Assembly: GCA_944387405.1 (NCBI GenBank)
Contig: CALXET010000002.1
Coordinates: forward strand, 129,316 to 193,315
DNA from: an uncultured Clostridia bacterium
Lineage (GTDB): Bacteria > Bacillota > Clostridia > TANB77 > CAG-508
Direction: 5' to 3'
Length of the DNA: 64,000 bases
Numbering within the stretch: the first letter of the stretch is position 1; each line of letters begins with the position of its first letter. The notes beneath the pieces were generated by a model, which was not told the origin of the DNA, did not search any database, and was given only the letters and a program-made list of their open reading frames with translations. Below, in pieces: positions 291 through 37,103 of this stretch. A program made the position numbers and the translations under genes.

Positions 291-396
291 TTTCATAGCT
301 TTTTTCTTATACAACAATTTTAGATTTTTAAAAATTATAAATAAAAAAATAAACCCCTTTGCAGGGGAAAGACTCTAAGTCTTTTTTAGTCGAGTT

Positions 397-651
397 CTAG
401 CTAGGAAGCCCCTCAAAAACGTATGCCCCATCGGCATTTTTCCTAAGAGGACTTAGCTGGCTCGAGTGCGAATCTATAAGATATGCAAACATCTGCCCAT
501 CTCTTTGGAAAACCGCACTTCTTTCAGCATCTGCCTTAGTGAAGTTTACGATGTTAAACTGATACCCCCTACCAAGATATGAAAAGCCAAACGTTTTGAG
601 ATTCTCGATAGCCTTCCTAAGTTCTTGGTCTTCCCTATAAACCTTCATCAT
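397..651 (-). CDS. hypothetical 84-aa protein on higher-GC cassette A
   Basis: ORF with start ATGATG and RBS agaaagg; GC visibly higher than flanks; a TGTTATAAT -10 lies about 100 nt upstream (revcomp of ~735-745); hairpins cccctgcaaagggg and aagacttagagtctt lie just downstream (345-395). Confidence 0.5.
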   Translation of the reverse strand: MMKVYREDQELRKAIENLKTFGFSYLGRGYQFNIVNFTKADAERSAVFQRDGQMFAYLIDSHSSQLSPLRKNADGAYVFEGLPS

Positions 652-848
652 TAGCCTTTCTACTAGACTTTTTACAAGACATTTCTCGTTATGTAGAGAT
701 AAACATTTAATGTCCTTTCTCTATTTTCTTAATCGACTTGCTTAAAATTATAACATAATTTAAATTTTATGTAAAATTGCTCTATCTACATATTTATGTT
801 ATAATACATTTACTATTTTTTATAAAATTTAGAAAGAGAGAAATATTT

Positions 849-1442
849 ATGATAATTAAAAATCCTAAATTTGAAATATCTGCAGTAAGACCTGCTCAAT
901 ATCCAAAAGGAAATTTGCCTGAAATTGTTTTAGTAGGAAAATCAAATGTCGGTAAATCTTCTTTTATAAACACTATGCTTAATAGAAAAAACTTAGCAAG
1001 AACTAGCAATACTCCAGGAAAGACTAGACAAATAAACTTTTATAATATAGATAATAACTTTTACTTTGTTGACTTACCTGGATATGGTTATAGTAAGCTA
1101 TCAAAAGAAGAACAAATCAATATGGGAAAGTTTATAGAAGATTATCTTCAAAAATCGAGAAACATAAAACTAATCATACTTCTTTTAGATATTAGGCACA
1201 AACCAACACCAGATGATCTATTAATGTATAAATATATATTAAAAACTAACTTGCCTTTTATGCTAGTTGCAAACAAAGCTGATAAAATTGCTATAACTAA
1301 AGTTGATTCTGTTATAGAAAATTTAAAAAAAGAACTTGGAATATCTTTTACTACTCTAATTCCATTCTCTTCTGAAAGAAAAATCTATACAGAAAAATCA
1401 TGGGAAATTATAGAAGAATTTTTAAATAATTCAAATATATAA
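849..1442 (+). CDS. engB: ribosome biogenesis GTP-binding protein EngB/YsxC
   Basis: G1 motif GKSNVGKSSFIN, DLPGYGY, NKADK motifs; RBS agaaagagag before ATG at 849 (the ORF track starts earlier at 777 with no RBS); promoter tatgttataat at ~805. Confidence 0.85.
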   Translation: MIIKNPKFEISAVRPAQYPKGNLPEIVLVGKSNVGKSSFINTMLNRKNLARTSNTPGKTRQINFYNIDNNFYFVDLPGYGYSKLSKEEQINMGKFIEDYLQKSRNIKLIILLLDIRHKPTPDDLLMYKYILKTNLPFMLVANKADKIAITKVDSVIENLKKELGISFTTLIPFSSERKIYTEKSWEIIEEFLNNSNI

Positions 1443-1487
1443 ATATTAAAAATATTTAACACAATAAAATTTAAATAAAAAGCAAAA

Positions 1488-1524
1488 ATGAGCTTAAAGA
1501 ATATTTAAGTTCATTTTTGTTTTT
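1488..1524 (+). terminator. intrinsic terminator after engB
   Basis: Hairpin atgagcttaaa-gaatat-tttaagttcat (one G-U) followed by ttttgttttt. Confidence 0.55.
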
Positions 1525-1618
1525 ATTCTATATATTAAGAATTACTCGTTAACATAACTCTTTATTTTTTGCTAATTTTGTGGTATAATTAAAAGTACTT
1601 CAAAGGAGGTATGACTCA

Positions 1619-1822
1619 ATGTTGTATGCAGAGCAAAAAAAGGAAAAGACTTTTAGGTTTGCGTCTAGCAAGACGGCCTACTACGTCGCATTCGAGAAGC
1701 TGGCAACCTTTTGCCACTACTTCGAGTTCGATGTGCAAGGAAGCTGTGTAACTATACCTGCTGGATGCCCTGCCGGAGTTGTTAACACCATGATTCAATA
1801 TGGTGGAACACTTGTGGCATAA
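1619..1822 (+). CDS. hypothetical 67-aa Cys-containing small protein on higher-GC cassette B
   Basis: Strong SD aaggaggt 7 nt before ATG; TGTGGTATAAT extended -10 at ~1589-1599; GC-rich coding sequence; followed by a GC-rich terminator. Confidence 0.55.
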   Translation: MLYAEQKKEKTFRFASSKTAYYVAFEKLATFCHYFEFDVQGSCVTIPAGCPAGVVNTMIQYGGTLVA

Positions 1823-1838
1823 ATTTTTCTTAGGCTCG

Positions 1839-1877
1839 AAGGCGACGCCCCACACTAAGGGCGCCGCCTTTTAATTT
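1839..1877 (+). terminator. intrinsic terminator of cassette B
   Basis: 12-bp GC-rich stem aaggcgacgccc/gggcgccgcctt (one mismatch), loop cacactaa, then ttaattt. Confidence 0.7.
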
Positions 1878-1880
1878 GCT

Positions 1881-2237
1881 TTAAATTCTAAGATCAATCG
1901 AACCATTTCTGATAATACTAATCTCGTATGTTTTGCAAGGTTCCTTTACTTTTACGCTAACCATGGCATCAAAATCAAAAAAAGCAGACATGATTTCGAC
2001 TATAATCACATGTAATTCATCTAGGTCTCCTGCATCAATTGGTTTGATATTTTTTCTCACAAATTCAATCAAATCTCGAGCTTTTTCTTCTTCGATGTAT
2101 TCATTCGAATATAGGGTAAATGATCTCCCATCATCGAACTTGAAATGTCTTTGATACTTTTTTCCCTCTTCTTTTTCCTTCTTGTTAAAATGCCTCATTA
2201 AAAACCGGGTAAAAATCTTACTAAACATTTCTTTCAT
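1881..2237 (-). CDS. hypothetical protein (118 aa), distant paralog of the 2573-2956 product
   Basis: ORF with intermediate GC; shares an FxxDD...YI...E...DxxxDDELxxI pattern with the cassette C protein. Confidence 0.45.
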   Translation of the reverse strand: MKEMFSKIFTRFLMRHFNKKEKEEGKKYQRHFKFDDGRSFTLYSNEYIEEEKARDLIEFVRKNIKPIDAGDLDELHVIIVEIMSAFFDFDAMVSVKVKEPCKTYEISIIRNGSIDLRI

Positions 2238-2339
2238 CCTCCTAAAATTTTTATCTATAATATAATAACATATTTCCTTCTCAAATACAAATAACGAGCC
2301 TATTACAAGGCTCGTTTAATAATTAATTAATTTATTTGT

Positions 2340-2510
2340 TTATTTTTTCTTAATCATTTTTAATGCTTTAGGTCTCTCTACAGTAATTATATGTTCACAT
2401 CCTAAACATTTAAATTTAAAATCAACACCTACTCTTATAATTTGCCATCTATTACTTCCACATGGATGTTTTTTCTTCATTTCTACTATATCACCTATAT
2501 TATACTCCAT
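2340..2510 (-). CDS. DUF951-family small zinc-ribbon-like protein
   Basis: MEYNIGDIVEMKKKHPCGSNRWQIIRVGVDFKFKCLGCEH matches DUF951 (GDIVxMKKxHPCG...CxGC). RBS aaaggtgg precedes ATG at 2510. The ORF-track extension to 2564 reads through the terminator hairpin of the upstream cassette and is probably not translated. Confidence 0.6.
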   Translation of the reverse strand: MEYNIGDIVEMKKKHPCGSNRWQIIRVGVDFKFKCLGCEHIITVERPKALKMIKKK

Positions 2511-2520
2511 ATCTACCACC

Positions 2521-2561
2521 TTTATAAAAAAACATCTGGCACACGCTTTACATGTGCCAGA
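2521..2561 (-). terminator. intrinsic terminator of cassette C, embedded in the apparent 5' extension of the DUF951 ORF
   Basis: Minus-strand hairpin tctggcacatgtaaagcgtgtgccaga followed by tgtttttttat. Confidence 0.6.
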
Positions 2562-2572
2562 CATTTCACAGC

Positions 2573-2956
2573 TTACACCTTACTAAAGAATTTCTTTTTC
2601 ACTGTAATAGTGATTTTCCTTGTTCTCATTTTCACAGGTGCTGATGCCATGATCTCTTTCTCGTCTACGAGGCTCCCCATTTTGTCACCTGACAAAACAA
2701 CACTCGCAAACTTAAGATGCAAGGGCATCTCTTCGGTACAGGTCTTTGTGTAGACTCTTACCTTGTAGGTTTTTCGAAGAATGTCAAGCTCATCATCAAA
2801 CCGTCCATCAGTAAAAGCCTCAAGCAGCTTAACTGCAATGTCTTTTTCAAGCTGCCCTACCCAATCTTCCACTTCAAGCGAAATATACTGCGAATTATAT
2901 AAGTCATCCTTCCGGAACAACTCCGCAGAAAAAACGCTCATAGGTACACTGTTCAT
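2573..2956 (-). CDS. hypothetical 127-aa protein on higher-GC cassette C
   Basis: Higher-GC ORF; SD aaggaggg upstream; TGTGCTATAAT extended -10 on the minus strand at ~2985-2995. Confidence 0.5.
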   Translation of the reverse strand: MNSVPMSVFSAELFRKDDLYNSQYISLEVEDWVGQLEKDIAVKLLEAFTDGRFDDELDILRKTYKVRVYTKTCTEEMPLHLKFASVVLSGDKMGSLVDEKEIMASAPVKMRTRKITITVKKKFFSKV

Positions 2957-3025
2957 TGGATAAAAACCCTCCTTATTAATTAAGAATAGACTTAATTATA
3001 GCACATTTATTTAATTTATTCAACT

Positions 3026-4669
3026 TTACTTACTTGCTCTTTTTAAAACAGATTCCTTGCCAAGTACTTTTAATATTTCATATAAATCAGGAGTATTTGC
3101 CCTACCTGTTATTTTTACTCTAATTACTGTACTTATATCTCCAACATGACCTTTGTATGCATCTGGATTTGCTTTATATTCTTTAACTTCCCTCGCATAT
3201 CCTAGCTCTTCTGATAAATCCTTCATCTTATTAAACCATGTTTGTTTGTCATCATTTTCATCATAATATTTATCAAAATAAGTAGTTACTATCTTCTTAA
3301 TCTCATCTTCGTCAGTTACCTTTTGATACTCATATTCTATGTTTGAAGTTAAAAATCTATCATCAAACATATATATAATTGAATCTTTAACATCAGACCA
3401 TTTAGCAATATCTTTTCTAGGTTTTACATTTCCTCTTTCAATTCCAAAAATTTTTAAAGCATATTCTTTATCTCTATTTAATAATTCATATAAATCTTTA
3501 TCATATGTACTTGCCCAATTTAAAACATCTTCTAAAACTTTTTCAGCTGAATAAGTAGAAATTACTGTTTTTGATACATCTAATAATTTTACCATATCAA
3601 ATAAAGCTCCACTTACTCCCATTTTCTTAATATCAAAATTAAAATCATCTACTGATTTATCTTTATTTCCTTTTTTCCAAGCCTCAAAATTAGAATTTGC
3701 AATATTCATTAAATATTCAATAACTGCTTCTTTTGGAATTCCTTCTTCTCTATAATAACTAACTGCAGCCTCTGGATCTTTTCTTTTACTTAGTTTTCTC
3801 TTATTTCCATCTTCTTCTTTCATTATAGGAGCAATATGTGCATATTTAGGCGCTTTAAATCCTAACATATAAAATAATTGTAAGTGAAGTGGTACTGAAG
3901 CTACCCATTCATCTGCTCTTATTACTAAATTAGTTCTCATTAAATGATCATCTACTGCATGAGCAAAATGATATGTTGGAAGTCCATCTGATTTAATAAT
4001 TACTATATCTTGATCATTTTCTGGAAACTCTATATTACCTTTTATTAAATCTTTATGCTTAATTTTCTTATCTGGATTTCCTGGTGATTTTAATCTTACT
4101 ATATAACTATCACCATTTTTTATTTTTTCTATAGCCATATCTACAGGCATATTTCTACATCTTGTCCATTTTCCATAATATCCTGTTCTTTGTCTTGCTT
4201 TTGTTTGATTTTCTCTTATTTCATTTAAATCTTCTGCAGAACAAAAACATGGATATGCTAGTCCTTTTTCAAGTAAACTTTTAGCATATGCTTGATATAT
4301 TTCTTTTCTTTTACTTTGAATATATGGTCCATAATTTCCATTATCTGTTCCATCTTCATTTAAAGATTCATCTGGTGATAAATCATATTCTTTTAAAGAA
4401 GTTAATATTTCAGATACACCATTTTCTATTTCTCTTTTTTGATCTGTATCTTCTATTCTTACAAAAAATACACCATCAGTTTGTTTTGCCATTTTTTTAG
4501 CAACTAAACTTTGATATAAACCTCCTATATGTACAAATCCTGTTGGGCTTGGTGCAAATCTAGTAACTATAGCACCTTCTTTTAAATTTCTTTCTGGATA
4601 TTTCTCTTCATAATAAGATACATCCTTTGCATCTGGAAATATTAAATCTGCTAATTCTTTATATCCCAT
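3026..4669 (-). CDS. gltX: glutamyl-tRNA synthetase (class I, with insertion domain)
   Basis: HIGH-type motif FAPSPTGFVHIGG, VRIEDTDQKR, KLSKR (KMSKS-type). Start MGYKELADLIF at 4669 with RBS agagaggtag; the ORF-track start at 4744 lacks an RBS. Confidence 0.8.
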   Translation of the reverse strand: MGYKELADLIFPDAKDVSYYEEKYPERNLKEGAIVTRFAPSPTGFVHIGGLYQSLVAKKMAKQTDGVFFVRIEDTDQKREIENGVSEILTSLKEYDLSPDESLNEDGTDNGNYGPYIQSKRKEIYQAYAKSLLEKGLAYPCFCSAEDLNEIRENQTKARQRTGYYGKWTRCRNMPVDMAIEKIKNGDSYIVRLKSPGNPDKKIKHKDLIKGNIEFPENDQDIVIIKSDGLPTYHFAHAVDDHLMRTNLVIRADEWVASVPLHLQLFYMLGFKAPKYAHIAPIMKEEDGNKRKLSKRKDPEAAVSYYREEGIPKEAVIEYLMNIANSNFEAWKKGNKDKSVDDFNFDIKKMGVSGALFDMVKLLDVSKTVISTYSAEKVLEDVLNWASTYDKDLYELLNRDKEYALKIFGIERGNVKPRKDIAKWSDVKDSIIYMFDDRFLTSNIEYEYQKVTDEDEIKKIVTTYFDKYYDENDDKQTWFNKMKDLSEELGYAREVKEYKANPDAYKGHVGDISTVIRVKITGRANTPDLYEILKVLGKESVLKRASK

Positions 4670-4771
4670 ATAATCTACCTCTCTATTCTTCTTTTTATTT
4701 ATAAAATTCAGCTCAATTATACCAAAGCTTCCTTTATTTTTCAATATTTATACGCAAAAGAAGATTAAGAA

Positions 4772-5446
4772 CTAGAAAATATTTTCTAGTTCTTTTAAAT
4801 CTTTTATAACTATATAATCTTTTGCATCTTCTGCTTGTTTTAAATCTCGCGTACCATCTATATCTAAAAGAATTGCTTTCATACCTACTCTATTTGCTCC
4901 AGATATATCTGTACGCTTGTCATCACCAATCATTATACATTCATCTTTGGTTGCTCCAATTTCTTTTAACAAATTATCAAAAGCTTCTTTAAAAGGTTTT
5001 GCACCAATTTCATCTGATCCAAATACTCTTATAAAATATTTATCTAAAGAAAGATTTTTTATTCTCTCTTTTTGTATTCTAGAGTAAAAGTTAGAGAAAA
5101 CATATAGGTTATAACCTTTATTTATTAAATATTCTAATGTCTCTTTTGTAACTAGAGCTTCTCTACAAAACTTGCTTCCTATAACTTCAATTATTTCTTC
5201 CATAAACTCTACCTGAAAATCAGTATCTAATTCTTTATTTACAAAGTCAGTCATATCTTTTAAGTTATAATATATATTTTCTCTTGTAAAATCACAATCA
5301 TAATTTCCAATAGACCTGTATATATCATTATAAAGACTTTCATCATAACCATATTTTTTTAAAACTTTTTTATATTCTAGTTTATCTTCTTCTTCATTTT
5401 TTACAATAGTATTATCTACATCAAATATTATATTTTTTATTTTCAT
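4772..5446 (-). CDS. HAD-superfamily hydrolase
   Basis: Motif I IIFDVDNTIV plus MIGDDKRTDISGA (motif IV-like). Confidence 0.7.
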   Translation of the reverse strand: MKIKNIIFDVDNTIVKNEEEDKLEYKKVLKKYGYDESLYNDIYRSIGNYDCDFTRENIYYNLKDMTDFVNKELDTDFQVEFMEEIIEVIGSKFCREALVTKETLEYLINKGYNLYVFSNFYSRIQKERIKNLSLDKYFIRVFGSDEIGAKPFKEAFDNLLKEIGATKDECIMIGDDKRTDISGANRVGMKAILLDIDGTRDLKQAEDAKDYIVIKDLKELENIF

Positions 5447-5488
5447 TTATTCCCCATTTTTTATTTTTGCTATTTTACTTTTATTTTT

Positions 5489-7381
5489 TTAGACTTCCAT
5501 AATAATTGGTAATATCATTGGATTTCTCTTTGTTTTAGCAAATATATAATCACGTAAACTATCTTTTAATTTTGCTTTTATAGTAGCCCAATCTCTTACA
5601 CCTGATTGTTCTAATTTCTCAATTTCATCTCTTAATACATGTTTTACTTCTTCCATTAGGTTTTCAGATTCTTTAACATAAACAAATCCTCTTGAAATAA
5701 CATCTGGACCTGCTAAAATCTCTCCTGTTGAAGAATCCATAGTAAGAACTACTATAATTAATCCATCTTGTGATAAATGTTGTCTGTCTCTTAAAACAAT
5801 ATTTCCAACATCTCCAACTCCAAGTCCATCAACCATAACTTTACCAAATGGCACTACTCCCGTAAGTTTTGCTTCTTCTTCATTAAGCTCTAAAATTCTA
5901 CCATTAGTCATTAAGAAAATATTTTCTGGTGGAATTCCTACTTTTTTAGCAGTCTCACTATGTGCAATTAATTGTCTATATTCTCCATGAACTGGTATAA
6001 AATATTTAGGTCTTATTAATGAAAGCATTAATTTTTGTTCTTCTTGACATGCGTGACCTGAAACATGTATAGCCTCTAAAGAACTATAAACAACTTCAGC
6101 ACCAATTTTCATTAAATCATCTATAACTTTAGCAACATATTTTTCATTACCTGGAATAGGATTTGCAGAAATAATTACCAAATCATTTGGTGTTATAGTA
6201 ACTTTTTTATGCTCTCCTGCTGCCATTCTAGTTAATGCAGACATTGTCTCTCCTTGGCTCCCAGTTGTAATTATAACTAATTGCTCATCTGGATAATTTT
6301 TAATCATATCAATATCAATAAACACATGGTCTGGGACATTTATATATCCAAGTTCCATAGCAGTATCTATCATATTTATCATACTTCTTCCACATACTGC
6401 AATTTTTCTATTATTTGCTACTGCTGAATTTACTATTTGTTGTACTCTATGAACATTTGAAGCAAATGTTGCAACTACTATCCTTTTTGTACAATTAAAG
6501 AATAATTTATCTAAAACCTCTCCTACAGAACTTTCAGACATAGTATATCCTTTTCTTTCAGAGTTTGTACTATCAGACATAAGTGCTAATACGCCTTTAT
6601 TACCAAGTTCAGCAAGTCTTCCAAAATCCATTTTTTCATCATCTATTGGTGTATAATCTATTTTAAAGTCACCTGTATGAACAACAGTACCTACCGGTGT
6701 GTGTATAGCTAAAGCGACAGCATCAGGAATACTATGACAACTCCTAATAAATTCTACTCTTATTTTTCCAAGTACTATTGTTTGTCCTTGATTTACTATT
6801 TTAAGTTTTGTACTTTTTAATAATTTATGTTCTTCTAATTTATGACTTATTAAACCTGCTGTAAGTTTTGTAGCATAAATTGGAACATTTATTTTACTTA
6901 ATAAATATGGAATAGCTCCTATATGATCTTCATGACCGTGAGTTATTACTAATCCTCTAATTTTTTCTCTATTTTTCTCTAGATAAGTAAAATCTGGTAT
7001 TACTAAATCAATACCAAGCATATCGTCTTCAGGAAATGCTAAACCACAGTCTACAAGTACTATATCATCGCCATATTCAAAAACAGTAATATTTTTACCG
7101 ATTTCTTGGATACCTCCTAAAGGTATTATTTTTAGCTTTTCTTGTTTAAATCTAAAATCTAATTTACCATCATTTTTCTTATTTTTTTGTCCTTTTTGAA
7201 TATTACGAGTATTTGTTGCATTAACATTTTTTCTAACACTTGATTTTTTTATTAATTTAGCATTTTCATTTACATTAGTATTTACATTATTTTTTTCTGA
7301 CTTTGTTACTTTTTCAGTTCTTTTTTTACTCTTCTTTTGAACTGGTTTTACATTATTTACTTTATTTTTATTTTCTTCCAT
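5489..7381 (-). CDS. rnj: ribonuclease J with Lys/Asn-rich N-terminal extension
   Basis: KIIPLGGIQEIGKNITVFEY, HGHEDHIGAIPYL metallo-beta-lactamase/beta-CASP motifs; ~95-aa low-complexity N-terminus. Confidence 0.85.
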   Translation of the reverse strand: MEENKNKVNNVKPVQKKSKKRTEKVTKSEKNNVNTNVNENAKLIKKSSVRKNVNATNTRNIQKGQKNKKNDGKLDFRFKQEKLKIIPLGGIQEIGKNITVFEYGDDIVLVDCGLAFPEDDMLGIDLVIPDFTYLEKNREKIRGLVITHGHEDHIGAIPYLLSKINVPIYATKLTAGLISHKLEEHKLLKSTKLKIVNQGQTIVLGKIRVEFIRSCHSIPDAVALAIHTPVGTVVHTGDFKIDYTPIDDEKMDFGRLAELGNKGVLALMSDSTNSERKGYTMSESSVGEVLDKLFFNCTKRIVVATFASNVHRVQQIVNSAVANNRKIAVCGRSMINMIDTAMELGYINVPDHVFIDIDMIKNYPDEQLVIITTGSQGETMSALTRMAAGEHKKVTITPNDLVIISANPIPGNEKYVAKVIDDLMKIGAEVVYSSLEAIHVSGHACQEEQKLMLSLIRPKYFIPVHGEYRQLIAHSETAKKVGIPPENIFLMTNGRILELNEEEAKLTGVVPFGKVMVDGLGVGDVGNIVLRDRQHLSQDGLIIVVLTMDSSTGEILAGPDVISRGFVYVKESENLMEEVKHVLRDEIEKLEQSGVRDWATIKAKLKDSLRDYIFAKTKRNPMILPIIMEV

Positions 7382-8808: not shown

Positions 8809-9012
8809 AAAACCACCTCATTATTTCAAAATTTATATTTTAATTTAACTTTTCTTACAACTTAAATATCTTATTAATTTTAATTATTATATCATAAATA
8901 TTATTATTAAAAATTGTAATTAGTATTTTATATTTTAAAGTTTATTTAATTGTTTTATGTAAACTATTGTGCTATAATAAATTAAGGCAACATAGAAAGG
9001 AGGTCACCAGTT

Positions 9013-9480
9013 TTGGATAGACCTGTTTATATACGGAAACTAACCACTGCTGATGCTAAAATTTACAAAAACATTTCTTATGGAGAATCTCTCCATAGAT
9101 ATGTTTCTTTTATGGAAGCAAAAAGCATATCAGAAGCAGAAAGGATCATATCCTTCAACACCTGCCTGTTTTCTACTATGTATGGAATCTTTCGAGCTAG
9201 TGATAACAAGCTAGTTGGAGCTTTAATTACCTCATGGTATGAACCAGACAGTGAGATCACGGTTCACTACTTCATAGGAGAATATTACAGAAGGAAACAC
9301 TATGCTTACGAGTCCCTAATTGTTCTCTCTCGGCTCGTAAAGCAGAAGTACCCCGAAGTAAAGACTCTCTTATTCGAAGTCAGAAAAACTAACAAGGCAA
9401 GTATCGCTCTGCAGAAAGCCTTAGGATCTGAACTTGTGAAGGAAAATGATAAAATTTACTTCTACTATTTATCCGTATAA
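9013..9480 (+). CDS. GNAT-family N-acetyltransferase on higher-GC cassette D (TTG start)
   Basis: Strong SD aaggaggt; TGTGCTATAAT extended -10 at ~8965-8975 with TTGTTT -35 17 nt upstream; GNAT-like C-terminal motif KASIALQKALGSELV; higher GC than flanks. Confidence 0.55.
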   Translation: MDRPVYIRKLTTADAKIYKNISYGESLHRYVSFMEAKSISEAERIISFNTCLFSTMYGIFRASDNKLVGALITSWYEPDSEITVHYFIGEYYRRKHYAYESLIVLSRLVKQKYPEVKTLLFEVRKTNKASIALQKALGSELVKENDKIYFYYLSV

Positions 9481-9482
9481 GC

Positions 9483-9528
9483 CTAGCCCAAGGTTCCCCT
9501 AAAAAGGAGCCCGGGCTTTTCTTTTGTC
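9483..9528 (+). terminator. putative terminator of cassette D
   Basis: GC-rich palindromic segment agcccaagg...gagcccgggc followed by ttttcttttg. Confidence 0.4.
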
Positions 9529-9982: not shown

Positions 9983-10060
9983 AATAGCAAAATTTGAATT
10001 TTTATGTTAACTGTGGTATTATTAATATATATACCCTATTTAGGAAGGAGGTATCAAGAA

Positions 10061-10828
10061 ATGGCAGGACACAAATTGTACCTTAAGTATGTACAACCTG
10101 TTGTTTCTGGCATTGATGGGGTATTCTCCCTTCTTGAGGGAATTGATGTCCTTAAGTGCTTTGTCCCTGATCTTCGGGAGCACTATAATGACTGCCCAAT
10201 AACATCTTTGCCAACCGTCACAGAAGAGGATCTTAAAAAACTGCTCAAGCCTAACAGCTTTGAGTATGTTCTAAAGACCTCAAAGGTGTTGGAAATCGAG
10301 TCGCCTAAGCTGGTGATTTCTGTATACACGATCTTCGAAATCGGAGGTTACGTTGCAGTAATCAAGTCTGGACGCAAGGTAAGCGCGAAAGTGCTGGGGT
10401 ACTACAACACCAGGGAGTTCAAGTCTGGTACCCACGCACTCTTCGATTTGCTGAAGAAACGTCACATGATTTCAGCTGAGTGCGAAGAGATCCAACCCGA
10501 TCGTCTGGACGTTCTCGATTTTGACGAGCTTGCAGATTGGCTATCTGGCTTCTTGGAGCCGGGTGTCACTCTCACGGTCAAGCACCGGCTCCCAACTTAC
10601 GAAGAGCTCGATGGAAAGCATACCACTTGGTATAACGATGGGAGTGCGCTTTCTCCTATCTACATCGAGATCGTAAACGTGAGTTGTGAGTGCTTCGTCA
10701 TATACGCCATGGTAAACTACGAAAACAAAGACGAGTACAGCTCCCTGGCTAAGAGCCATGGGTTCCAAGCTTACGAATCTGCGTTCTGTGATTCCGGCGT
10801 ATTTGAGGAACTGTTCTACACGGACTAG
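10061..10828 (+). CDS. hypothetical 255-aa protein on strongly higher-GC (~50%) cassette E
   Basis: SD aggaaggaggt before ATG 10061 (MAGHKLYLKY...). The ORF-track start at 10004 is upstream of the RBS. No recognisable motifs. Followed by a GC-rich terminator. Confidence 0.6.
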   Translation: MAGHKLYLKYVQPVVSGIDGVFSLLEGIDVLKCFVPDLREHYNDCPITSLPTVTEEDLKKLLKPNSFEYVLKTSKVLEIESPKLVISVYTIFEIGGYVAVIKSGRKVSAKVLGYYNTREFKSGTHALFDLLKKRHMISAECEEIQPDRLDVLDFDELADWLSGFLEPGVTLTVKHRLPTYEELDGKHTTWYNDGSALSPIYIEIVNVSCECFVIYAMVNYENKDEYSSLAKSHGFQAYESAFCDSGVFEELFYTD

Positions 10829-10846
10829 CCCTGTGACAGGAAAGGT

Positions 10847-10888
10847 GCCCGCATGCTAAACACATGCGGGCGCCTTCTTTTATTTTTT
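10847..10888 (+). terminator. intrinsic terminator of cassette E
   Basis: 9-bp stem gcccgcatg/catgcgggc, loop ctaaaca, then gccttcttttatttttt. Confidence 0.75.
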
Positions 10889-19115: not shown

Positions 19116-19272
19116 TTTTTTTATTATTTATTTAATTTTTTTATCAAATGATAATAGACAGTAAGAAAAAATAAATAAATATATAATCATATTTATCATG
19201 AGCATGGATACTCCATTTTTCTTACAGCTTGTGATATACTTTGCAAAAACACTTTGAAATAGAGGTGCTTTT

Positions 19273-19482
19273 ATGGATGCTTTAAAAGATAAGTTTTTTT
19301 CTGCATATGCAGAAGTATTTGATGAAAAAGGAAACCCAAAAGCCTGTGGAAGGCGGAAGTGTTCTGAGCTTATAGAACTCTGCTATCAGATTGATGGCAA
19401 AAGTGATTTTGGAAATGTACAGACCGGAATCATGAATGTTTCAAATATCCTTAGTCTTAAGGAAAAACTTTCTCAAAATTAA
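19273..19482 (+). CDS. hypothetical 69-aa protein on higher-GC cassette F
   Basis: RBS agaggtg; TGTGATATACT extended -10 at ~19230; higher GC; followed by a strong terminator shared with the convergent hemW. Confidence 0.5.
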   Translation: MDALKDKFFSAYAEVFDEKGNPKACGRRKCSELIELCYQIDGKSDFGNVQTGIMNVSNILSLKEKLSQN

Positions 19483-19556
19483 TTTTTTGGCCTTTATGGA
19501 GTATCCAAGAAAGCTAATATAGCATCTGTATTACGCAGAACTTATGTTACATGAAA

Positions 19557-19598
19557 AAGAGGGTGACTTTGATAAAGTTCACCCTCTTTTTGCTTTTT
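19557..19598. terminator. bidirectional intrinsic terminator (cassette F / hemW)
   Basis: Stem aagagggtgacttt/aagttcaccctctt around loop gata, T-tract downstream on the plus strand and A-tract upstream. Confidence 0.7.
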
Positions 19599-24625: not shown

Positions 24626-24699
24626 TTACATACCTCTTTTCTATATATAATTTATTTTATCTTTTGTACTTCTATAATTATATTTATTTTTATTAATTA

Positions 24700-28598: not shown

Positions 28599-28610
28599 GA
28601 GGTGAAATAA

Positions 28611-28748: not shown

Positions 28749-28841
28749 TTAAATAAATTTTTATCTAAAATCAAATATTGTAAACATAAAAATAATCGTA
28801 TTATTAAATTAATACGATTATTTTTTTAGCTTTCTTTTTTA

Positions 28842-29642: not shown

Positions 29643-29676
29643 ATCTTCCTTTACCTAAAAAATTTCTATTTTTAAT

Positions 29677-30396: not shown

Positions 30397-30476
30397 TTAA
30401 AAAATCTCCTTAAAAATATATTCTAATTTTACCATAGTAGTATTATTATTACTATACTATATTAATATAATTTATT

Positions 30477-31556: not shown

Positions 31557-31747
31557 AATATACCTTCTTATTAATAAATTAGATAAATTATACTACGATT
31601 TCTCTTATTCTTCAATAATTTATTGTGTTTTTATGTAAACTGTGTTATAATTTTGTTTGTCCTGTATGACAGCTATTATATTTCTAAATGAGCAAGACCG
31701 ACTTAGAAGTACAATAGTTTATTAACTTTTAGAAAGGGGATGTTTTT

Positions 31748-33160
31748 ATGCAGTACAGAGACATTTTGCAGCAGGAGATCGATAAACGGTTAACCGAAGC
31801 TGCAGCATTTTCACTTTGCCCACTTGATGGGCGCTATGTAGCAATCGCCAAAGCGCTTGCTCCGTATCTTTCCGATTGGGCACTTCAGTACCATCGGGTA
31901 AACGTAGAAGTCGAGTGGTTCATTGCAATGACCGAACTGGTTGAATCATCTGATTTTCTTATGGATTTTGATCCTAATATGACGATGATTATTCGCAGTA
32001 TTGCAGAAGAGTTTACCATCGATGACTACTACGAAATCAAAGACATCGAAAAGGTAACAAACCACGATGTCAAGGCGGTGGAAGTATTTCTGCAAAGAAG
32101 GTTCAAGGTCATCGGTCTTGAGAAGTTTGTAAGCTTTATTCACTTTGGATGTACATCCGAAGACATTAACAATTTGGCTTACGGGCTCATGATTAAGTCG
32201 GCTTTGAATGATGTCATTATTCCGAAAATGGCTGAACTTGCTGATAAGATCAATGACTTTTCAACATCATTTGCAAGAGTCCCGATGCTCGCGCATACAC
32301 ACGGACAAAAAGCCTCTCCGACAACAGTTGGAAAAGAATTTGCTGTATACCGTGAGCGCCTCTACTCAGTAATCGATGATTTATCATATATTCCTATTAC
32401 TGGAAAATTTAACGGCGCAACCGGAAATCATTCAGCTGTTTCAGTGGCTTTCCCTTGCGAAGATTGGCCGGCAATTGCAGAGCAGTTCGTAACAGATTAT
32501 ATGGGGCTTGAATTCAAGCTGGTTACTACACAGATTGAACCTCATGATTATATCTGTGAGATTTGTGATGCTATCCGTCACTACAACAACATTCTCATCG
32601 ACTTTGATCTGGATATGTGGCTTTATATCAGTATGGACTACTTAAAACAGATCCCGGTTAAGGGTGAAGTTGGTAGTTCTACTATGCCGCATAAGGTAAA
32701 TCCGATTAAGTTCGAAAACTCGGAAGCATCTGTGTGGTTCTCAAATGCGCTGCTGATTGCATTGTCTGAAAAGCTTCCGCGCTCTCGTATGCAGAGAGAT
32801 CTCTCTGACTCTGCTACACAGAGAAATATCGGAATCGCTTTTGGATATGCACTGCAGGCAATAAATCAGACCATATCCGGGCTCGAAAAAATCGATGTCA
32901 ATACAGATGTAATCTCTGAAGATCTCGATAGTAGCTGGGAAGTCCTTGCAGAACCGATTCAGACCGTTATGCGCAAATACGGTATTTCCGATGCCTATGA
33001 TAGGCTTAAACAGCTTACTCGTGGCAAAGAGATTACTCGTGAAGACATTCAGGAATTTATCAAGACTCTTGATTTTATTTCCGAAGACGATCGAGAAGAT
33101 CTCTTGAAGTTGAAACCGTCAGATTATACGGGCTACGCTGTAGAAATTACAGAAAATTAA
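31748..33160 (+). CDS. purB: adenylosuccinate lyase, E. coli-type (class II) PurB, on higher-GC (~46%) cassette G
   Basis: LCPLDGRY, TNHDVKAVE, HFGCTSEDINN, GSSTMPHKVNP signature, about 456-aa type. TGTGTTATAAT extended -10 at ~31641; SD agaaagggga. Confidence 0.85.
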   Translation: MQYRDILQQEIDKRLTEAAAFSLCPLDGRYVAIAKALAPYLSDWALQYHRVNVEVEWFIAMTELVESSDFLMDFDPNMTMIIRSIAEEFTIDDYYEIKDIEKVTNHDVKAVEVFLQRRFKVIGLEKFVSFIHFGCTSEDINNLAYGLMIKSALNDVIIPKMAELADKINDFSTSFARVPMLAHTHGQKASPTTVGKEFAVYRERLYSVIDDLSYIPITGKFNGATGNHSAVSVAFPCEDWPAIAEQFVTDYMGLEFKLVTTQIEPHDYICEICDAIRHYNNILIDFDLDMWLYISMDYLKQIPVKGEVGSSTMPHKVNPIKFENSEASVWFSNALLIALSEKLPRSRMQRDLSDSATQRNIGIAFGYALQAINQTISGLEKIDVNTDVISEDLDSSWEVLAEPIQTVMRKYGISDAYDRLKQLTRGKEITREDIQEFIKTLDFISEDDREDLLKLKPSDYTGYAVEITEN

Positions 33161-33198
33161 CATTTTTCCTACAAAACTGAATAGCAACAAAAACTAAA

Positions 33199-33241
33199 GG
33201 GCTCTGGCACATTACGTGTCAGGGCCCTCCCCTTTTATTTT
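33199..33241 (+). terminator. intrinsic terminator of cassette G (abuts convergent recN stop)
   Basis: 12-bp stem gggctctggcac/gtgtcagggccc (two G-U pairs only in the plus-sense RNA), then tccccttttatttt. Confidence 0.7.
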
Positions 33242-34865
33242 ATGCTACTCTATCTTTTCTTAATTCTTTTGCATGCTTCATAGAAATCTCTGTAACTTCT
33301 CCTGTTGAAATTCTAGCTATTTCTTTTATTACTTCATCTTCATCTAATAATTTGATAGATGTTCTTGTTTTATCATTATCAACACTTTTTGAAATAAAAT
33401 AATTATAATCAGCTTTAGCAACTATAGTAGCTAAATGAGTAACACATATTACCTGATGTTTTTTTGAAATTTCTCTAATTTTATAACCAACTCTTTTTGC
33501 CGCTACTCCGCTTATTCCTGTATCAATCTCATCAAATATTAATACTGGAACTTTATCTACATCAGATAGTACTTTCTTTATGCCAAGCATAATTCTTGAC
33601 ATCTCTCCACCAGATGCAATTTTTACAAGTGGTTTAGCTTCTTCTCCAACATTAGTTACAATTAAGAATTCTACTTTATTTAATCCATTACTATTAAACT
33701 TTTCTTCATCAGAAATACTAACTTCAAATTTAGCATTTTTCATTTCCATATCATATAATTCTAAATTAATTCTTTCAGCTAGTTCTTTTGATACTTTTCT
33801 TCTAAGTGTATTCATAGTTAAAGATAGTTCTCTTAATTTTTCTTCTATCTCTATTTTATCTTTTTTTAGTTTATTTATATATTCATCTAAATTTTCTATA
33901 TCAAATAATTCTTTTTCTATTTTTTCTCTATACTTTAGTATTTCTAGAATATTGTTTCCATATTTTCTTTTCAAATCTTGAATTAAATCTAATCTTCTCT
34001 CTAAATTTTGTTTTTCTTCTTCATCATACTCAATATCATCTTTATATGAATCTAAGTCTCTTTCAGTCTCTTCTAATTCATAATATGAGCTTCTTATTCT
34101 AGAAGCTAAGTCTAAATATTTATCATCTATATTTGAAATTTTGTCTATTGATTTTAATACATCGCTTAAGCTACTTAAAATATTTTCACTTAATCCATAA
34201 TAAGCTTCGTTTAAATTTGATGATATTTTTTCAGAATTATTTATTATTCTAAGTTTGCTTTCAACTTCATCTTCTTCATTTTCTTTTAATTCAGCTTCAT
34301 CAATTTCATTTAGTTGATATCTAAGCAAATCTATTTTTCTTTGCTTTTCCATATCGTCTCCATAATTTTGTTTAAGCTCTGATTTTACTTTCAAATACAT
34401 GTCATATTGTTTTTTATATTCATCTTTTATTCCTTTAATTTCAGTTCCTATATAATCATCTAAAAACTCAATATGACTCTTTGGATCTAATATTGTTTGA
34501 TTATCATTTTGTCCATGAATATCTATTATATTTTGCATAAAATCTTTAAGTTCATTAACAGTAACTAATCTTCCGTTTATCTTACATAAATTTCTACCAG
34601 CAATATTTACTTCTCTTGAAACAATAATATTTTCCTCTTCACCTTGTTCATTTTTTATATAAATAGAAGCCTCTACATATGAATTTTTTTCGCCTCTTCT
34701 AATCATTTCTTTTGAAAATCTACCACCTGCTAATATTTGAAGAGAATCTATTATTAAAGTCTTTCCAGCTCCTGTTTCTCCTGTTAAAACATTAAAGCCT
34801 TCATGTAAGTTTACTGACATATCATCTATTATACCTATATTTTTTATATGTAATGTATCTATCAT
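33240..34865 (-). CDS. recN: DNA repair protein RecN
   Basis: IKNIGIID...LTGETGAGKT Walker A, coiled coil, C-terminal DEIDTGISG. Start MIDTLHIKN. Confidence 0.85.
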   Translation of the reverse strand: MIDTLHIKNIGIIDDMSVNLHEGFNVLTGETGAGKTLIIDSLQILAGGRFSKEMIRRGEKNSYVEASIYIKNEQGEEENIIVSREVNIAGRNLCKINGRLVTVNELKDFMQNIIDIHGQNDNQTILDPKSHIEFLDDYIGTEIKGIKDEYKKQYDMYLKVKSELKQNYGDDMEKQRKIDLLRYQLNEIDEAELKENEEDEVESKLRIINNSEKISSNLNEAYYGLSENILSSLSDVLKSIDKISNIDDKYLDLASRIRSSYYELEETERDLDSYKDDIEYDEEEKQNLERRLDLIQDLKRKYGNNILEILKYREKIEKELFDIENLDEYINKLKKDKIEIEEKLRELSLTMNTLRRKVSKELAERINLELYDMEMKNAKFEVSISDEEKFNSNGLNKVEFLIVTNVGEEAKPLVKIASGGEMSRIMLGIKKVLSDVDKVPVLIFDEIDTGISGVAAKRVGYKIREISKKHQVICVTHLATIVAKADYNYFISKSVDNDKTRTSIKLLDEDEVIKEIARISTGEVTEISMKHAKELRKDRVA

Positions 34866-34945
34866 ACATATCTTCCTTTCGCACATTTGTTTGTATAGAT
34901 ATAATACTAATATTTTTAAAAGTTGTCAATACATTTGTTCGCTTT

Positions 34946-35569
34946 TTATAAATTTCTTTTTTTAAATTCCTCTGCAAGCATTCTCATCGCTTTTTCTCTG
35001 TGATTATGACTATCTGCATATTCCTCTTCGTCCATTTCACTCATTGGCTTATCAAATCCTTCCGGTATAAATATTGGTGAATAAGTAAGACCTCCTAATT
35101 TTCCAGCTTCTTTTGCAATTCTTCCAAAACACTCTCCTCTTTTAACAATCATCTCTCCGTCATCTAGAATTGCTGTTAATACACATACAAAAGTACATTT
35201 TCTTTCTTCATCACTTTTTGCATCTTTCATATTTTCTAAAACCTTATTTATACTATCTATTTGTGGAGCATGATCTCCTGCATATCTTGCTGTATGCACT
35301 CCTGGATCTCCATTTAAATAATCAATACAAAGTCCTGCATCATCAGTTATTATTATTCTTCCATGAATATCTTTTTCATTACAATACTCTTTTATAGCTT
35401 TTGCTTTTATTTGAGAATTCTCTTCAAATGTTTTGCCATCTTCTATTATTTCTCTATCAAATCCTATATCTTTCAAAGTCTCAACCTCTGCATCTATATG
35501 TAGATTTTTTAATATTTTTCTAAATGCAACTACTTTTTCCTTATTTCCTGTACCATAAATTATTTTCAT
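34946..35569 (-). CDS. rdgB: non-canonical purine NTP pyrophosphatase (RdgB/Ham1 family)
   Basis: KIIYGTGNKEK ... TARYAG ... FVCVL ... GGLTYSPIF pattern of Ham1/RdgB. Confidence 0.8.
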   Translation of the reverse strand: MKIIYGTGNKEKVVAFRKILKNLHIDAEVETLKDIGFDREIIEDGKTFEENSQIKAKAIKEYCNEKDIHGRIIITDDAGLCIDYLNGDPGVHTARYAGDHAPQIDSINKVLENMKDAKSDEERKCTFVCVLTAILDDGEMIVKRGECFGRIAKEAGKLGGLTYSPIFIPEGFDKPMSEMDEEEYADSHNHREKAMRMLAEEFKKRNL

Positions 35570-35689
35570 AATAACCTCCAAAATAAAAAATCATAAAATT
35601 TTATATTTTATGTAATTTTACTTATTTTATATCATATAAAAATAAAAAAACAAATAACAAATTATTCGTTTTTTTATTTGTTACTTGTT

Positions 35690-36322
35690 TTATAATAATA
35701 AACTCTTTTCCTCTTCATCACTCGCTAATTTTAAATTTAATTTATTTCTTATAGTTCCTGTATTTTCCTCATTTCCGGTAAAAATCAAATATCTTAGTAC
35801 TGTATCTATTTCATCTACTACTTCATCATTTTCTACTATTCTAATTATATCTTTTTTAGGAAGTACATTTATAAATATATCTGATTTGTTATCATTTTCA
35901 GCAAAGTTTTTATATCCTTCACTTAAAAAGCTTAATATGTCACTTTTATCTATTATTCTATTTGAATCTAATAACTTATAACATACTGAAAGCTTTGCCA
36001 TAATCTCATCATCGTCTTCTATACGAGTTCTATTTGCTTCTAAGTATCTTAAGAATTTATTAAAATCTAATAATACCGGATAATTAATTAATGCATAAAT
36101 TTCAAGTAATATATAAGTTATTATGTTTTTTTCATCATCTTCTTTTTCAAATATCTTTGCATAGTTTTCAACTTCTAAATCTAGTATTCTCATCATATGA
36201 TCATCATATTTAATAAGTTTACGAATTGTATCTCCACTCTTTGATTTAGTAACAATGTATTTGTTGTCGTATTCTTTATAAAAATTAATTTCTTCTCTTA
36301 ATTTCTTAATTTCGTTTTCCAT
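35690..36322 (-). CDS. hypothetical protein (210 aa)
   Basis: ORF only. Confidence 0.4.
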   Translation of the reverse strand: MENEIKKLREEINFYKEYDNKYIVTKSKSGDTIRKLIKYDDHMMRILDLEVENYAKIFEKEDDEKNIITYILLEIYALINYPVLLDFNKFLRYLEANRTRIEDDDEIMAKLSVCYKLLDSNRIIDKSDILSFLSEGYKNFAENDNKSDIFINVLPKKDIIRIVENDEVVDEIDTVLRYLIFTGNEENTGTIRNKLNLKLASDEEEKSLLL

Positions 36323-36437
36323 CTTATTCTCCTATACACAAATATTTTGCATAAATATTATATCATATTTGTCAAATCTGTAACAATTGCTTTTGTAGGT
36401 AGCACAGCCTAAGCCATGCCACCTAACCTTTGATACA

Positions 36438-36782
36438 TCATTTAGCAATTTTCAAAGATGCTGCATGCGGTAATAAACCGAGCTTAGCAAAGAACAATGA
36501 CAGCTCAACATATGTGTAATCCTGATGACCTTTAATGGCCAAAATCTTCACATATCCATCACTTTCATTTACAAGTTCATGACTCTCTCCTTTTGGACAG
36601 ATATAGACATTTTTCTTGTCGAGCCATATCCATACCTCCCATTGGTCGTTATGATCATGCATTGTAATTGTTGTGTACGGTGCTACGCTCAGATATTGAA
36701 TCTCGTCAATCTCTGTCAAGACTATCTTCCGCACTTCATCGCCTTTGATAAATTTTTCTGGGAGCTTTACTTCTGGTATCAT
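36438..36782 (-). CDS. cupin-domain small protein on higher-GC cassette H
   Basis: HDHNDQWEVWIWL...ICPKGESHEL cupin-like His motifs; SD taggagga; TATAAT on minus strand at ~36815; higher GC than flanks. Confidence 0.55.
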   Translation of the reverse strand: MIPEVKLPEKFIKGDEVRKIVLTEIDEIQYLSVAPYTTITMHDHNDQWEVWIWLDKKNVYICPKGESHELVNESDGYVKILAIKGHQDYTYVELSLFFAKLGLLPHAASLKIAK

Positions 36783-37103
36783 ATGCTTCCTCCTATAAAT
36801 ATATCAAATCCTCATTGTTACGCAACTATTATACTATACTTTACATAAAAAAGCAATGTATTAGTATTTTATATTCATCTATATTTTACATTATATTTAA
36901 TTCTATAACACAAATTTTTAATATATCTTATTTGCAATGTAATAATTAATATCTTTATATAAAATGCATTTTGTGTAAAAATATGGTATAATATAAATAT
37001 ATATTATAATAAACAAAATAATTAAATATGGAGCGAAATTTAACACTAAAAGAATTTATAATTTTAATAACTGAGTCTCACATAAGATAAGGAGGATTTT
37101 AAT

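Follow-up and report, generated by a model that had tools for sequence, protein, structure and literature searches.

GC-rich single-gene units resembling phage morons among the housekeeping genes of an AT-rich gut Clostridia lineage

Introduction

Why does a very AT-rich chromosome carry, between its housekeeping genes, isolated genes whose third codon positions are far richer in G and C than those of their neighbours? The question is raised by a stretch of 64,000 nucleotides (the window) from an uncultured Clostridia bacterium (assembly GCA_944387405.1, contig CALXET010000002.1, positions 129,316 to 193,315 of the forward strand). An initial annotation listed eight GC-rich open reading frames (ORFs) in it, here called c1 to c8, and attributed them to an uncharacterised cassette-delivery mechanism, to recent transfer from donors of 45-50% GC, or to an engineered or chimeric assembly. 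A ninth unit, x9, is added here. All nine ORFs encode real proteins and belong to the accessory genes of a gut Clostridia lineage that is uncultured and has ~27% GC. The reading we favour, tentatively and as a possibility short of an established one, is that they are units of the chromosome with the build of phage morons, and that their GC-rich codon usage is kept up actively.

Nine GC-rich genes in an AT-rich window

The overall GC content of the window was 26.9%, and a sliding profile showed discrete islands of 37-52% GC at the positions of the eight listed ORFs. The GC content at third codon positions (GC3) was 0.134 ± 0.031 (mean ± sd; range 0.057-0.214) in 62 native ORFs compared to 0.26-0.56 in the eight listed ORFs, which exceed the natives by 3.9 to 13.7 sd (Mann-Whitney p = 7e-7). 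The compositional contrast first noticed was therefore upheld quantitatively, with the following GC3 values, the last belonging to the unit absent from the initial list.

397-651, minus strand: c1, GC3 0.447
1619-1822, plus strand: c2, GC3 0.485
2573-2956, minus strand: c3, GC3 0.461
9013-9480, plus strand: c4, GC3 0.378
10061-10828, plus strand: c5, GC3 0.562
19273-19482, plus strand: c6, GC3 0.257
31748-33160, plus strand: c7, GC3 0.416
36438-36782, minus strand: c8, GC3 0.383
1881-2237, minus strand: x9, GC3 0.311

At fourfold-degenerate sites, GC was 0.00-0.10 in the native genes and 0.3-0.5 in the nine units, where the four bases were used almost evenly. The codons CTC, CTG, TCC, CGC and CGG accounted for 0.2-0.6% of their codon families in the natives and for 10-19% in the nine units. 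The elevated GC was bounded by the ORF, rising at the start codon and dropping past the terminator, and the adjoining untranslated regions (UTRs) and spacers were 7-30% GC. The GC-rich units were confined to the first 37 kb, where they make up 9 of 40 genes, compared to none of 31 beyond (p = 0.004). Five of the nine, compared to 8 of the 62 native ORFs, lay on the plus strand (Fisher p = 0.008); the units are thus over-represented in the orientation opposite to that of most transcription, and presumably of replication as well.

Two stretches near c5 were also recorded. The T-rich spacer between two convergent genes at 10890-11040, which is indel-variable among strains and without evident function, was taken as a proxy for neutral base composition; its GC of ~0.07 indicates that the neutral equilibrium is very AT-rich. 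The gene at 11783-12748 (minus strand), which encodes a metallo-beta-lactamase fold, had an intermediate GC3 of 0.21, with a nonsynonymous divergence (dN) of 0.19 and a synonymous divergence (dS) of 1.5 from the sister lineage L092, and was absent in the more distant lineage L101. It may belong to the GC-rich class as an older or weaker member.

Anatomy of the units

The elements of the nine units, with spacer lengths in nucleotides and Shine-Dalgarno sequences abbreviated SD, were as follows.

343..775, minus strand: c1; promoter TTTACA-17-TATAAT with TG at 747-775; SD GAAAGG at 655-660; ORF 397-651, 84 aa, no known domain
343-383, minus strand: c1 terminator; tandem hairpins and T tract
1561..1880, plus strand: c2; extended -10 TGTGGTATAAT at 1579-1589; SD AAAGGAGG at 1602-1609; ORF 1619-1822, 67 aa
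1839-1872, plus strand: c2 terminator; hairpin and T tract, common to x9
1823..2284, minus strand: x9; promoter TTGAGA-16-TATTAT at 2257-2284; SD at 2238-2244; ORF 1881-2237, 118 aa
2524..3023, minus strand: c3; promoter TTGAAT-17-TATAAT with TGTGC at 2995-3023; SD AAGGAGGG at 2967-2974; ORF 2573-2956, 127 aa; terminator 2524-2566
8950..9525, plus strand: c4; promoter TTGTTT/TTTTATGTAAACT/TGTGCTATAAT at 8950-8978; SD at 8996-9003; terminator 9485-9525
9013-9480, plus strand: c4 ORF; 155 aa, GNAT of the Acetyltransf_3 type, TTG start
9994..10888, plus strand: c5; promoter TTGAAT/TTTTATGTTAACT/GTGGTATTAT at 9994-10022; SD GGAAGGAGG at 10043-10051; terminator 10842-10888
10061-10828, plus strand: c5 ORF; 255 aa, no known domain or fold
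19195..19592, plus strand: c6; extended -10 TGTGATATACT at 19230-19240; SD at 19261-19267; ORF 19273-19482, 69 aa, conserved Cys motif
19554-19592, plus strand: c6 terminator; also faces the end of hemN
31623..33241, plus strand: c7; promoter TTGTGT/TTTTATGTAAACT/GTGTTATAAT at 31623-31651; conserved 5' leader 31652-31747; SD at 31733-31740
31748-33160, plus strand: c7 ORF; 470 aa, adenylosuccinate lyase of the PRK09285/ASL_C type; terminator 33198-33241
36396..36856, minus strand: c8; promoter TTGCTT/TTTTATGTAAAGT/ATAGTATAAT at 36828-36856; SD TAGGAGGAAG at 36786-36795; ORF 36438-36782, 114 aa
36396-36425, minus strand: c8 hairpin; no T tract

Read from the sequence, each of the nine units can be assigned a promoter of the sigma-A type, an SD and a stable hairpin. 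The initial annotation had given each unit a TGTGnTATAAT-type extended -10 element. That motif occurred four times in the window, only at c2, c3, c4 and c7 (0.6 expected by chance); c5 (TGTGGTATTAT) and c6 (TGTGATATACT) had one-mismatch versions, the -10 of c1 was TGnTATAAT only, and c8 had no TG. The SD and the hairpin stood for every unit, with some elements weaker than described. The SDs ranged from AAAGGAGG, AAGGAGGG, GGAAGGAGG and TAGGAGGAAG to the weaker GAAAGG (c1), AGAGGTG (c6) and AAAGGGGA (c7). A stable hairpin of -13.5 to -30 kcal/mol followed the stop codon in all nine, with a T tract in seven; x9, which is convergent with c2 and shares a single hairpin with it, has no U tract on its side, and neither has c8. 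The gaps that hold the units lie between housekeeping genes (engB, gltX, rnj, dnaJ, hrcA, hemN and an SMC-like gene), and these native neighbours are directly adjacent in many relatives. The description of the units as self-contained expression cassettes was thereby borne out.

The c3 terminator (2524-2566) falls within the over-extended N-terminus of the neighbouring DUF951 ORF (2340-2564, minus strand). The Pfam match of this ORF begins at residue 21, and its likely start is the ATG at 2510, which is preceded by AAAGGTGG.

The units are coding and present in independent assemblies

The dN/dS ratios of the units were 0.06-0.27, indicating that they are real proteins under purifying selection. 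The product of c7 was confirmed as an E. coli-type PurB, since it scored 596.7 bits against NCBIfam NF006764 (PRK09285; cut-off 446) and matched both PF00206 (Lyase_1; E = 3.7e-42) and PF08328 (ASL_C; E = 1.2e-44). The GNAT call for c4 was also secure, with 38.2 bits against PF13302 (Acetyltransf_3; gathering threshold 25.4). The cupin call for c8 was not sustained, as Cupin_2 reached 16.0 bits against a threshold of 27.2 and covered residues 59-83 only; the orthologue of c8 in lineage L084 bears a 'faint' Cupin_2 flag, and the gene is called cupin-like below. PADLOC returned nothing in a search for defence functions.

An artefact, whether from chimeric assembly of metagenomes, from engineered inserts or from GC-rich non-coding RNAs mistaken for ORFs, might be suspected from the 'designed' look of the cassettes and from long chance ORFs on both strands, such as 1616-1855 (minus strand) and 36525-36848 (plus strand); such ORFs are expected of GC-rich DNA in an AT-rich genome. 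Non-coding RNAs were ruled out by codon-position periodicity, by the dN/dS ratios, by the Pfam and NCBIfam matches of PurB and the GNAT, and by the absence of Rfam families from the islands in the window and in seven relatives (the window matched only 6S RNA and tRNA-Glu). The exact protein sequences of seven of the eight listed units, of x9 and of the native RNase J were found in public collections, on many contigs of up to 1.84 Mb, which rules out synthetic or planted cassettes. An exact-sequence look-up did not find c1 in those collections, and DNA 97-100% identical to c1 was present in six other strains. The gene order including the cassettes, with the same junctions, was repeated in dozens of independent assemblies from many samples, including contigs of 386 kb and 449 kb, so chimeric assembly and engineering, both raised by the initial annotation, are excluded. 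An artefact of any of these kinds is accordingly close to inconceivable.

By its RNase J, the window belongs with uncultured gut Clostridia, beside Candidatus Scatovivens.

Orthologues occupy the same slots in related lineages

A graded series of relatives was compared: L086-L091 belong to the same species, the native proteins of L092 are mostly 85-98% identical to those of the window, and L094 and then L101 are more distant. All nine units were found in other strains of the species, and eight of the nine, all but c1, had positional orthologues in other lineages. L092 carries c2, x9, c3, c4 and c5 in place, L094 and L101 carry c4 and c5, L084 and L085 carry c7, L084 carries c8, and genus-level relatives carry c4 and c6. 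All of these positional orthologues are still GC-rich. The orthologues of c2 and x9 in L092 were 62% and 56% identical in protein sequence, with GC3 of 0.42-0.44 and 0.39-0.40 and dN/dS of 0.12 and 0.11, respectively. Those of c3 were 76% identical in L086 (GC3 0.54) and 50% identical in L092 (GC3 0.47). For c4 the identity was 78% in L092, 65% in L094, 53% in L101 and 32-44% in L004-L009 (GC3 0.29-0.47). Homologues of c6 (GC3 0.33-0.44) lay between hrcA and hemN in L004, L007 and L008, and near rnj in L036 and L040. The c8 orthologue of L084 was 82% identical (GC3 0.36), next to a neighbour 100% identical.

The purB slot has the order radical-SAM, PurB, SMC-like, Ham1, 210-aa protein and cupin-like protein. 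The nearest homologues of PurB occupied this slot in L084 (72% identical, GC3 0.56) and L085 (68%, GC3 0.39), among neighbours with GC3 of ~0.11. The flanking proteins were 83-100% identical in L084 (91-100% for all but one) and 36-82% in L085. Outside this synteny PurB homologues were at most 61% identical, likewise in AT-rich hosts.

The native order rnj-gltX-DUF951-engB was widespread in 80 related species, in most of which the gltX-DUF951 gap occupied by c3 in the window measured 15-50 bp. No tblastn match to c1, c2, x9, c3 or c5 was obtained in these 80 species; seen alone, this would suggest insertion in a single species, a picture that the closer relatives described above change. The identity matrices of the GNAT (c4) and of c6 followed the RNase J tree (L004-L005, 99% with RNase J at 98%; L007-L009, 61% with RNase J at 94%; remaining pairs, 30-44% with RNase J at 84-91%), indicating vertical descent.

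Searches for outside sources gave 8 matches for c5 and 7 matches or clusters for c4 among 5.8 billion proteins, and those whose context was fetched share the synteny; c3 had a single homologous cluster among 1.84 billion representatives. No homologues of c3, c4 or c5 were thus found outside the clade among 1.8-5.8 billion proteins. Viral contigs held no close relative of these three genes and PHROG gave no significant match except a generic acetyltransferase, so that a phage origin receives no support from either source. A donor lineage was not identified for c3, c4, c5 or PurB; for c1, c2, x9, c6 and c8 the check consisted of an exact-cluster look-up only. The absence of outside homologues, together with GC-rich orthologues in the same slots, argues, for those units that this comparison covered, against donors and against a recent arrival. 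The proposed donors of 45-50% GC were therefore not found, and recent acquisition gave way to long residence: within the clade, the relatives largely have the same genes with the same composition, an outcome that the initial annotation had itself named as refuting its reading. Clean empty sites in close relatives, which an insertion was expected to leave, were represented only by the c6 slot of L092, and the c1 slot of that lineage is differently occupied.

Fast divergence, recombination and turnover of slots

Between lineages, dN and dS of the units were 2-7 times those of their neighbours. Compared to L084, dS was 2.8 for purB and 1.8 for the cupin-like gene, against 0.18-0.79 for native genes, and a 100-bp identity profile showed both genes 56-83% identical inside flanks 90-100% identical, with the divergence confined to the units. 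Within the species, in contrast, c1, c2, x9, c4 and c5 were as conserved as their flanks (dS 0-0.09); this, with the ordinary dN/dS ratios, rules out gene-targeted hypermutation. Relaxed selection as the source of the high GC was also rejected, since fast-evolving natives stay AT-rich (the native gene n304, at 73% protein identity, has a GC3 of 0.11).

The lineages are fine-scale recombination mosaics in which 500-800 bp at 100% identity abut tracts of 80-88% identity, as seen for window positions 26000-36900 against L084 and 1-11800 against L086-L091. Native-gene divergence therefore probably underestimates the age of the lineages. The c3 tract (2500-3200) is a within-species import that brought native flanks along. 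Slots also change their content. L092 lacks c6, with ~430 bp absent between hrcA and hemN, and has an unrelated 79-aa ORF (GC3 0.39) in the c1 slot; the gltX-DUF951 slot holds unrelated GC-rich ORFs in L008, L030/L033 and L034; the c2/x9 slot of L101 holds a different, unrelated GC-rich gene pair; and the c8 slot of L085 holds an unrelated AT-rich ORF. Because the native genes are adjacent in relatives and the slots gain, lose and swap cassettes, an insertional origin is reasonable. Of the initial interpretation, the cassette-like insertional architecture and the turnover of slots thus survived, and recent multi-donor transfer and engineering did not.

These observations bear on a reading close to the cassette-delivery mechanism first proposed, in which the slots are hot spots for recurrent exchange and GC-rich units are redelivered or swapped from an unsampled, GC-richer pool (mobile elements or divergent relatives, for example), so that their GC is renewed. 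It would account for the turnover at the c1, gltX-DUF951, c2/x9 and c6 slots, for purB and cupin-like alleles in L084 that are so divergent next to flanks that include 100%-identical tracts, and for the import of the c3 tract, and the promoter module of four units (described below) could mark a common vehicle. Against it, same-slot homologues track the species tree, and the flanks that came with c3 are what ordinary homologous recombination brings. The purB promoter, its ~100-nt leader and the position of its terminator are homologous in all three lineages, with compensatory changes in the terminator stem, indicating that the unit was inherited and not re-inserted. Reading of the unit ends by eye, where no repeat search was made, showed neither flanking repeats nor a shared recombination site, and the shared motifs were promoter elements only; no integrase or transposase occurred among the Pfam-annotated neighbours, which leave out 21-26 kb and 37-64 kb of the window; and searches for c3, c4 and c5 found no copies in viral contigs or outside the clade. 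Recurrent exchange is, on balance, improbable.

The AT-rich purB leader (31652-31747) is itself a candidate new regulatory leader of a purine gene, judged from its sequence. It is kept in L084 and L085 while the coding sequence is ~65-70% identical in DNA, and it can be folded into a long hairpin GCUAUUA-UAUUUCUAA ... UUAGAAGUA-CAAUAGU with the conserved loop GAGCAAGAC, in which UUUCUAA would alternatively be able to pair with the SD region UUAGAAAGGGG. It matched no Rfam family, and the three sequences gave no covariation.

The coincidence of recombination mosaics, high divergence and high GC also suggests GC-biased gene conversion (gBGC) at local recombination hot spots, which would lift GC and diversity together and would enrich all three codon positions, as is somewhat the case. 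The sharp edges of the islands, however, match the ORF and its terminator and not recombination tracts, with adjacent UTRs and spacers as AT-rich as stated above, and this ORF boundary argues against gBGC. Variation of the units within the species does not exceed that of their flanks, and the shift in GC at fourfold-degenerate sites (GC4), from ~0.05 to 0.45, to our knowledge far exceeds that reported for bacterial gBGC. We regard this explanation as very unlikely.

Is the composition decaying or maintained?

Atypical genes acquired by horizontal transfer drift toward the composition of the host (the amelioration framework of Lawrence and Ochman), and the units could be old transfers from GC-rich donors that are still ameliorating, more slowly than estimated. 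At the distance of L004, L007 and L008, native fourfold sites were saturated, their identity being that of random expectation (0.46-0.51), and the c4 and c6 orthologues kept a GC3 of 0.29-0.47. At synonymous sites of c4 and c6 compared between the window and L007 (71 sites), the probability that a strong base (S, G or C, as opposed to weak, W, A or T) is matched by a strong base was 0.36, against 0.39 under independence, and both genomes had 39% GC at these sites. Memory of the S/W state was therefore lost while both remained at 39% GC, and pure decay would need an ancestor of ~100% GC3. Outgroup-polarised synonymous changes in the GC-rich genes showed no excess of S-to-W over W-to-S changes (22 and 23, 16 and 17, 29 and 57). 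Sister lineages of equal age and equal native composition differ in GC3 (0.56 and 0.28 for c5; 0.42 and 0.56 for purB), and for c5 this is not predicted by clock-like decay. Pairwise S/W transition tables are circular as to stationarity save for the memory test at deep divergence, and polarisation of 'singleton' single-nucleotide polymorphisms is uninformative here, the window being the outlier strain.

Amelioration has points in its favour. Higher dN and dS than in the neighbours are expected of GC-rich sequence under AT-biased mutation; the GC3 values grade continuously between 0.56 and 0.26, and the borderline gene at 11783-12748 stands at 0.21; and the ancestral GC3 that pure decay demands climbs smoothly with depth (0.48, 0.65, 0.67 and 0.77). 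The codon usage of the units may resemble that of a moderate-GC Firmicute, and an ASL_C-type PurB is unusual for Firmicutes. On the other side stand the ancestor of ~100% GC3 at a depth where native fourfold sites are fully saturated, the discordance between sister lineages, the polarised changes, and the lack of a donor for c3, c4 and c5 in very large databases. Continuing amelioration is unlikely, though it accounts for several of the observations.

From the loss of synonymous memory we infer that the composition is maintained rather than decaying, held by an ORF-bounded force; selection is the probable cause. Several results weigh against this. The parsimony polarisation is biased, in that it predicts an equilibrium GC (GC*) of 0.23-0.36 for natives that stand at 0.09. 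Persistence at depth depends on few families (c4 and c6), with 71 synonymous sites at the deepest comparison, and on the assumption that GC-to-AT change is considerably faster than A-T transversion, a ratio taken from parsimony counts and from published mutation spectra. The between-lineage dS excess of 2-7 times compares, in a rough calculation, with ~1.2-1.8 times predicted for a selected stationary state, and so lies nearer to neutral decay or deep allelic coalescence. GC3 varies among orthologues (c5, 0.56, 0.54, 0.44 and 0.28; purB, 0.56, 0.42 and 0.39). The polymorphism test on c4 and c5 was underpowered and gave no more than a weak hint, with 12 S-to-W and 4 W-to-S changes among rare variants and 12 and 11 among common ones. 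GC at first and second codon positions is also somewhat raised in the units, as a purely synonymous force would not do. Third positions are most AT-rich in highly expressed native genes, so that ordinary translational selection would point the opposite way.

Under the favoured reading, the units would have entered or arisen before the present species split and would since have been inherited vertically in fixed slots under purifying selection, with occasional loss, or replacement together with pieces of the flanks by homologous recombination between lineages. By its sequence, each is an autonomous, monocistronic unit made up of a host-type sigma-A promoter (TTGnnn, 17-nt spacer, usually an extended -10), an SD, an ORF and a hairpin terminator. 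The foreign-looking codon usage would be a heritable property of the gene class that outlasts complete turnover of synonymous sites, and a force confined to the ORF would hold the composition off the extreme AT equilibrium of the genome. The most likely force would be selection on the base and codon content of the transcripts, whether by way of expression level, of mRNA stability or of translation that draws on another set of codons, and it may be tied to the promoter module common to four units.

A promoter module and a shared codon shift

The motif TTATGTWAAST occurred four times in the 64 kb, only in the promoter spacers of c4, c5, c7 and c8 (0.86 expected), and was kept in the orthologous promoters of L084, L085, L086, L092, L094 and L101. 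A scan of metagenome contigs with a longer pattern gave more than 120 loci. On AT-rich contigs, 14 of 30 motif-adjacent genes were GC-rich ORFans (ORFs with no relatives elsewhere), compared to a promoter-proximal base rate of 23% (p = 0.003). These 14 ORFans, which lie 3' of the module TTTTATGTWAASTRTRNTAT, are unrelated to the cassettes of the window and come from many gut metagenomes (L104, L112-L114, L122, L124, L129, L131, L132, L135, L139, L143, L160 and L213). The module hints at co-regulation or at a common promoter origin and proves neither.

A codon shift was common to 36 GC-rich ORFs of distant species, in which ATA made up 26% of its family compared to 55% in natives, TTA 20% compared to 63%, and CAG 59% compared to 10%. 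ATA, TTA and CTA were avoided by the PurB orthologues in all five AT-rich hosts compared. The same shift in distant ORFs and the avoidance by PurB argue for a class-wide regime. A bolder version of the favoured reading is that a clade-wide class of chromosomal, moron-like single-gene units exists in AT-rich gut Clostridia, many of them lineage-restricted ORFans, with GC-rich codons maintained by selection and coupled to the module TTTTATGTAAAS-TRTGnTATAAT. Such a class would be a codon-usage regulon, read with codons that other genes of the host hardly employ, and the mirror of bldA/TTA control in the GC-rich Streptomyces; we consider this doubtful and put it forward as speculation.

A tRNA-Glu with anticodon CUC, which reads GAG, is encoded at 46615-46689 (minus strand). 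GAG makes up 18% of the Glu codons in natives and 37% in the GC-rich class. In L099, another AT-rich host, the purC gene (SAICAR synthase; 7528-8376, minus strand) adjoining purB had a GC3 of 0.33, compared to 0.12-0.14 in the flanks, and raised GC3 may extend to purine genes more widely in some lineages.

Relation to known systems

Phage morons, a concept of Hendrix and Juhala, are single coding regions that carry a promoter and a factor-independent terminator of their own and sit between two genes that relatives have side by side; their composition is unlike that of their neighbours and has been read as recent acquisition, by a mechanism that is unknown and without a recognisable recombinase target (PMC4378225). 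The units likewise have a single ORF, their own promoter and terminator, a slot between genes adjacent in relatives, and a deviant composition. Unlike morons, they lie outside any phage or prophage, in the chromosome backbone among housekeeping genes; they stay in place from species to species, and their composition is retained. The view of the initial annotation that the arrangement is not a known mobile-element pattern is therefore corrected, as the anatomy matches the moron definition in all but genomic location.

With genomic islets, atypical genes of horizontal origin, the units share atypical GC and codons, functions that are accessory or unknown, patchy occurrence outside the clade and evolution faster than that of core neighbours. 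They differ in having no donor found, no mobility genes, no tRNA anchors, the same position in related species, and a GC3 that has not converged on that of the host even where native synonymous sites are saturated. Integron cassettes are also single-gene modules of unrelated function, but they are promoterless, carry attC sites and are arrayed beside an integrase, whereas every unit described here is equipped with a promoter and a terminator, and the units are scattered.

Control through non-optimal codons is known from bldA/TTA in Streptomyces and from codon-biased stress translation. As in these systems, a subset of genes uses codons rare elsewhere in the genome, and the usage is conserved; in the units it is the composition of the whole gene that is shifted, not one codon, and the tRNA-Glu(CUC) is the sole hint in the window of a capacity for G-ending codons. 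Non-optimal-codon regulation or selection may be the closest functional analogy for a maintained class of rare-codon genes. One study of E. coli reports that selection favours GC-richer versions of genes (PMC5774297). The literature searched contained no earlier account of the phenomenon, and none of genome composition for this clade.

Atypical composition is a standard flag of recent transfer and is expected to fade by amelioration. The units studied here, which any detector working on composition would class as foreign, are long-term syntenic residents of the clade that stay 20-40 GC3 points above a genome with fourfold sites of 0-10% GC. If their composition is truly maintained, transfer calls based on composition, and estimates of 'time since transfer', would be unsafe in extreme-AT genomes. 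The units would then also be a testable case of strong, gene-class-specific selection or fixation bias on bacterial synonymous sites, maybe linked to the promoter, and would extend the 'moron' architecture from phages to the backbone of a bacterial chromosome.

Other features of the window

A 6S RNA (RF00013, 77 bits) at 22572-22762 (minus strand) formed a GC bump of its own and overlapped a spurious 53-aa ORF. The RNase J gene has a K/N-rich N-terminal extension (7100-7400) that varies among strains, with proteins of 630 or 646 aa and 65-86% DNA identity. A CIRCE-like inverted repeat, TTAGCA-N15-TGCTAA, lies at ~19041-19067, 5' of hrcA, and is kept in L092.

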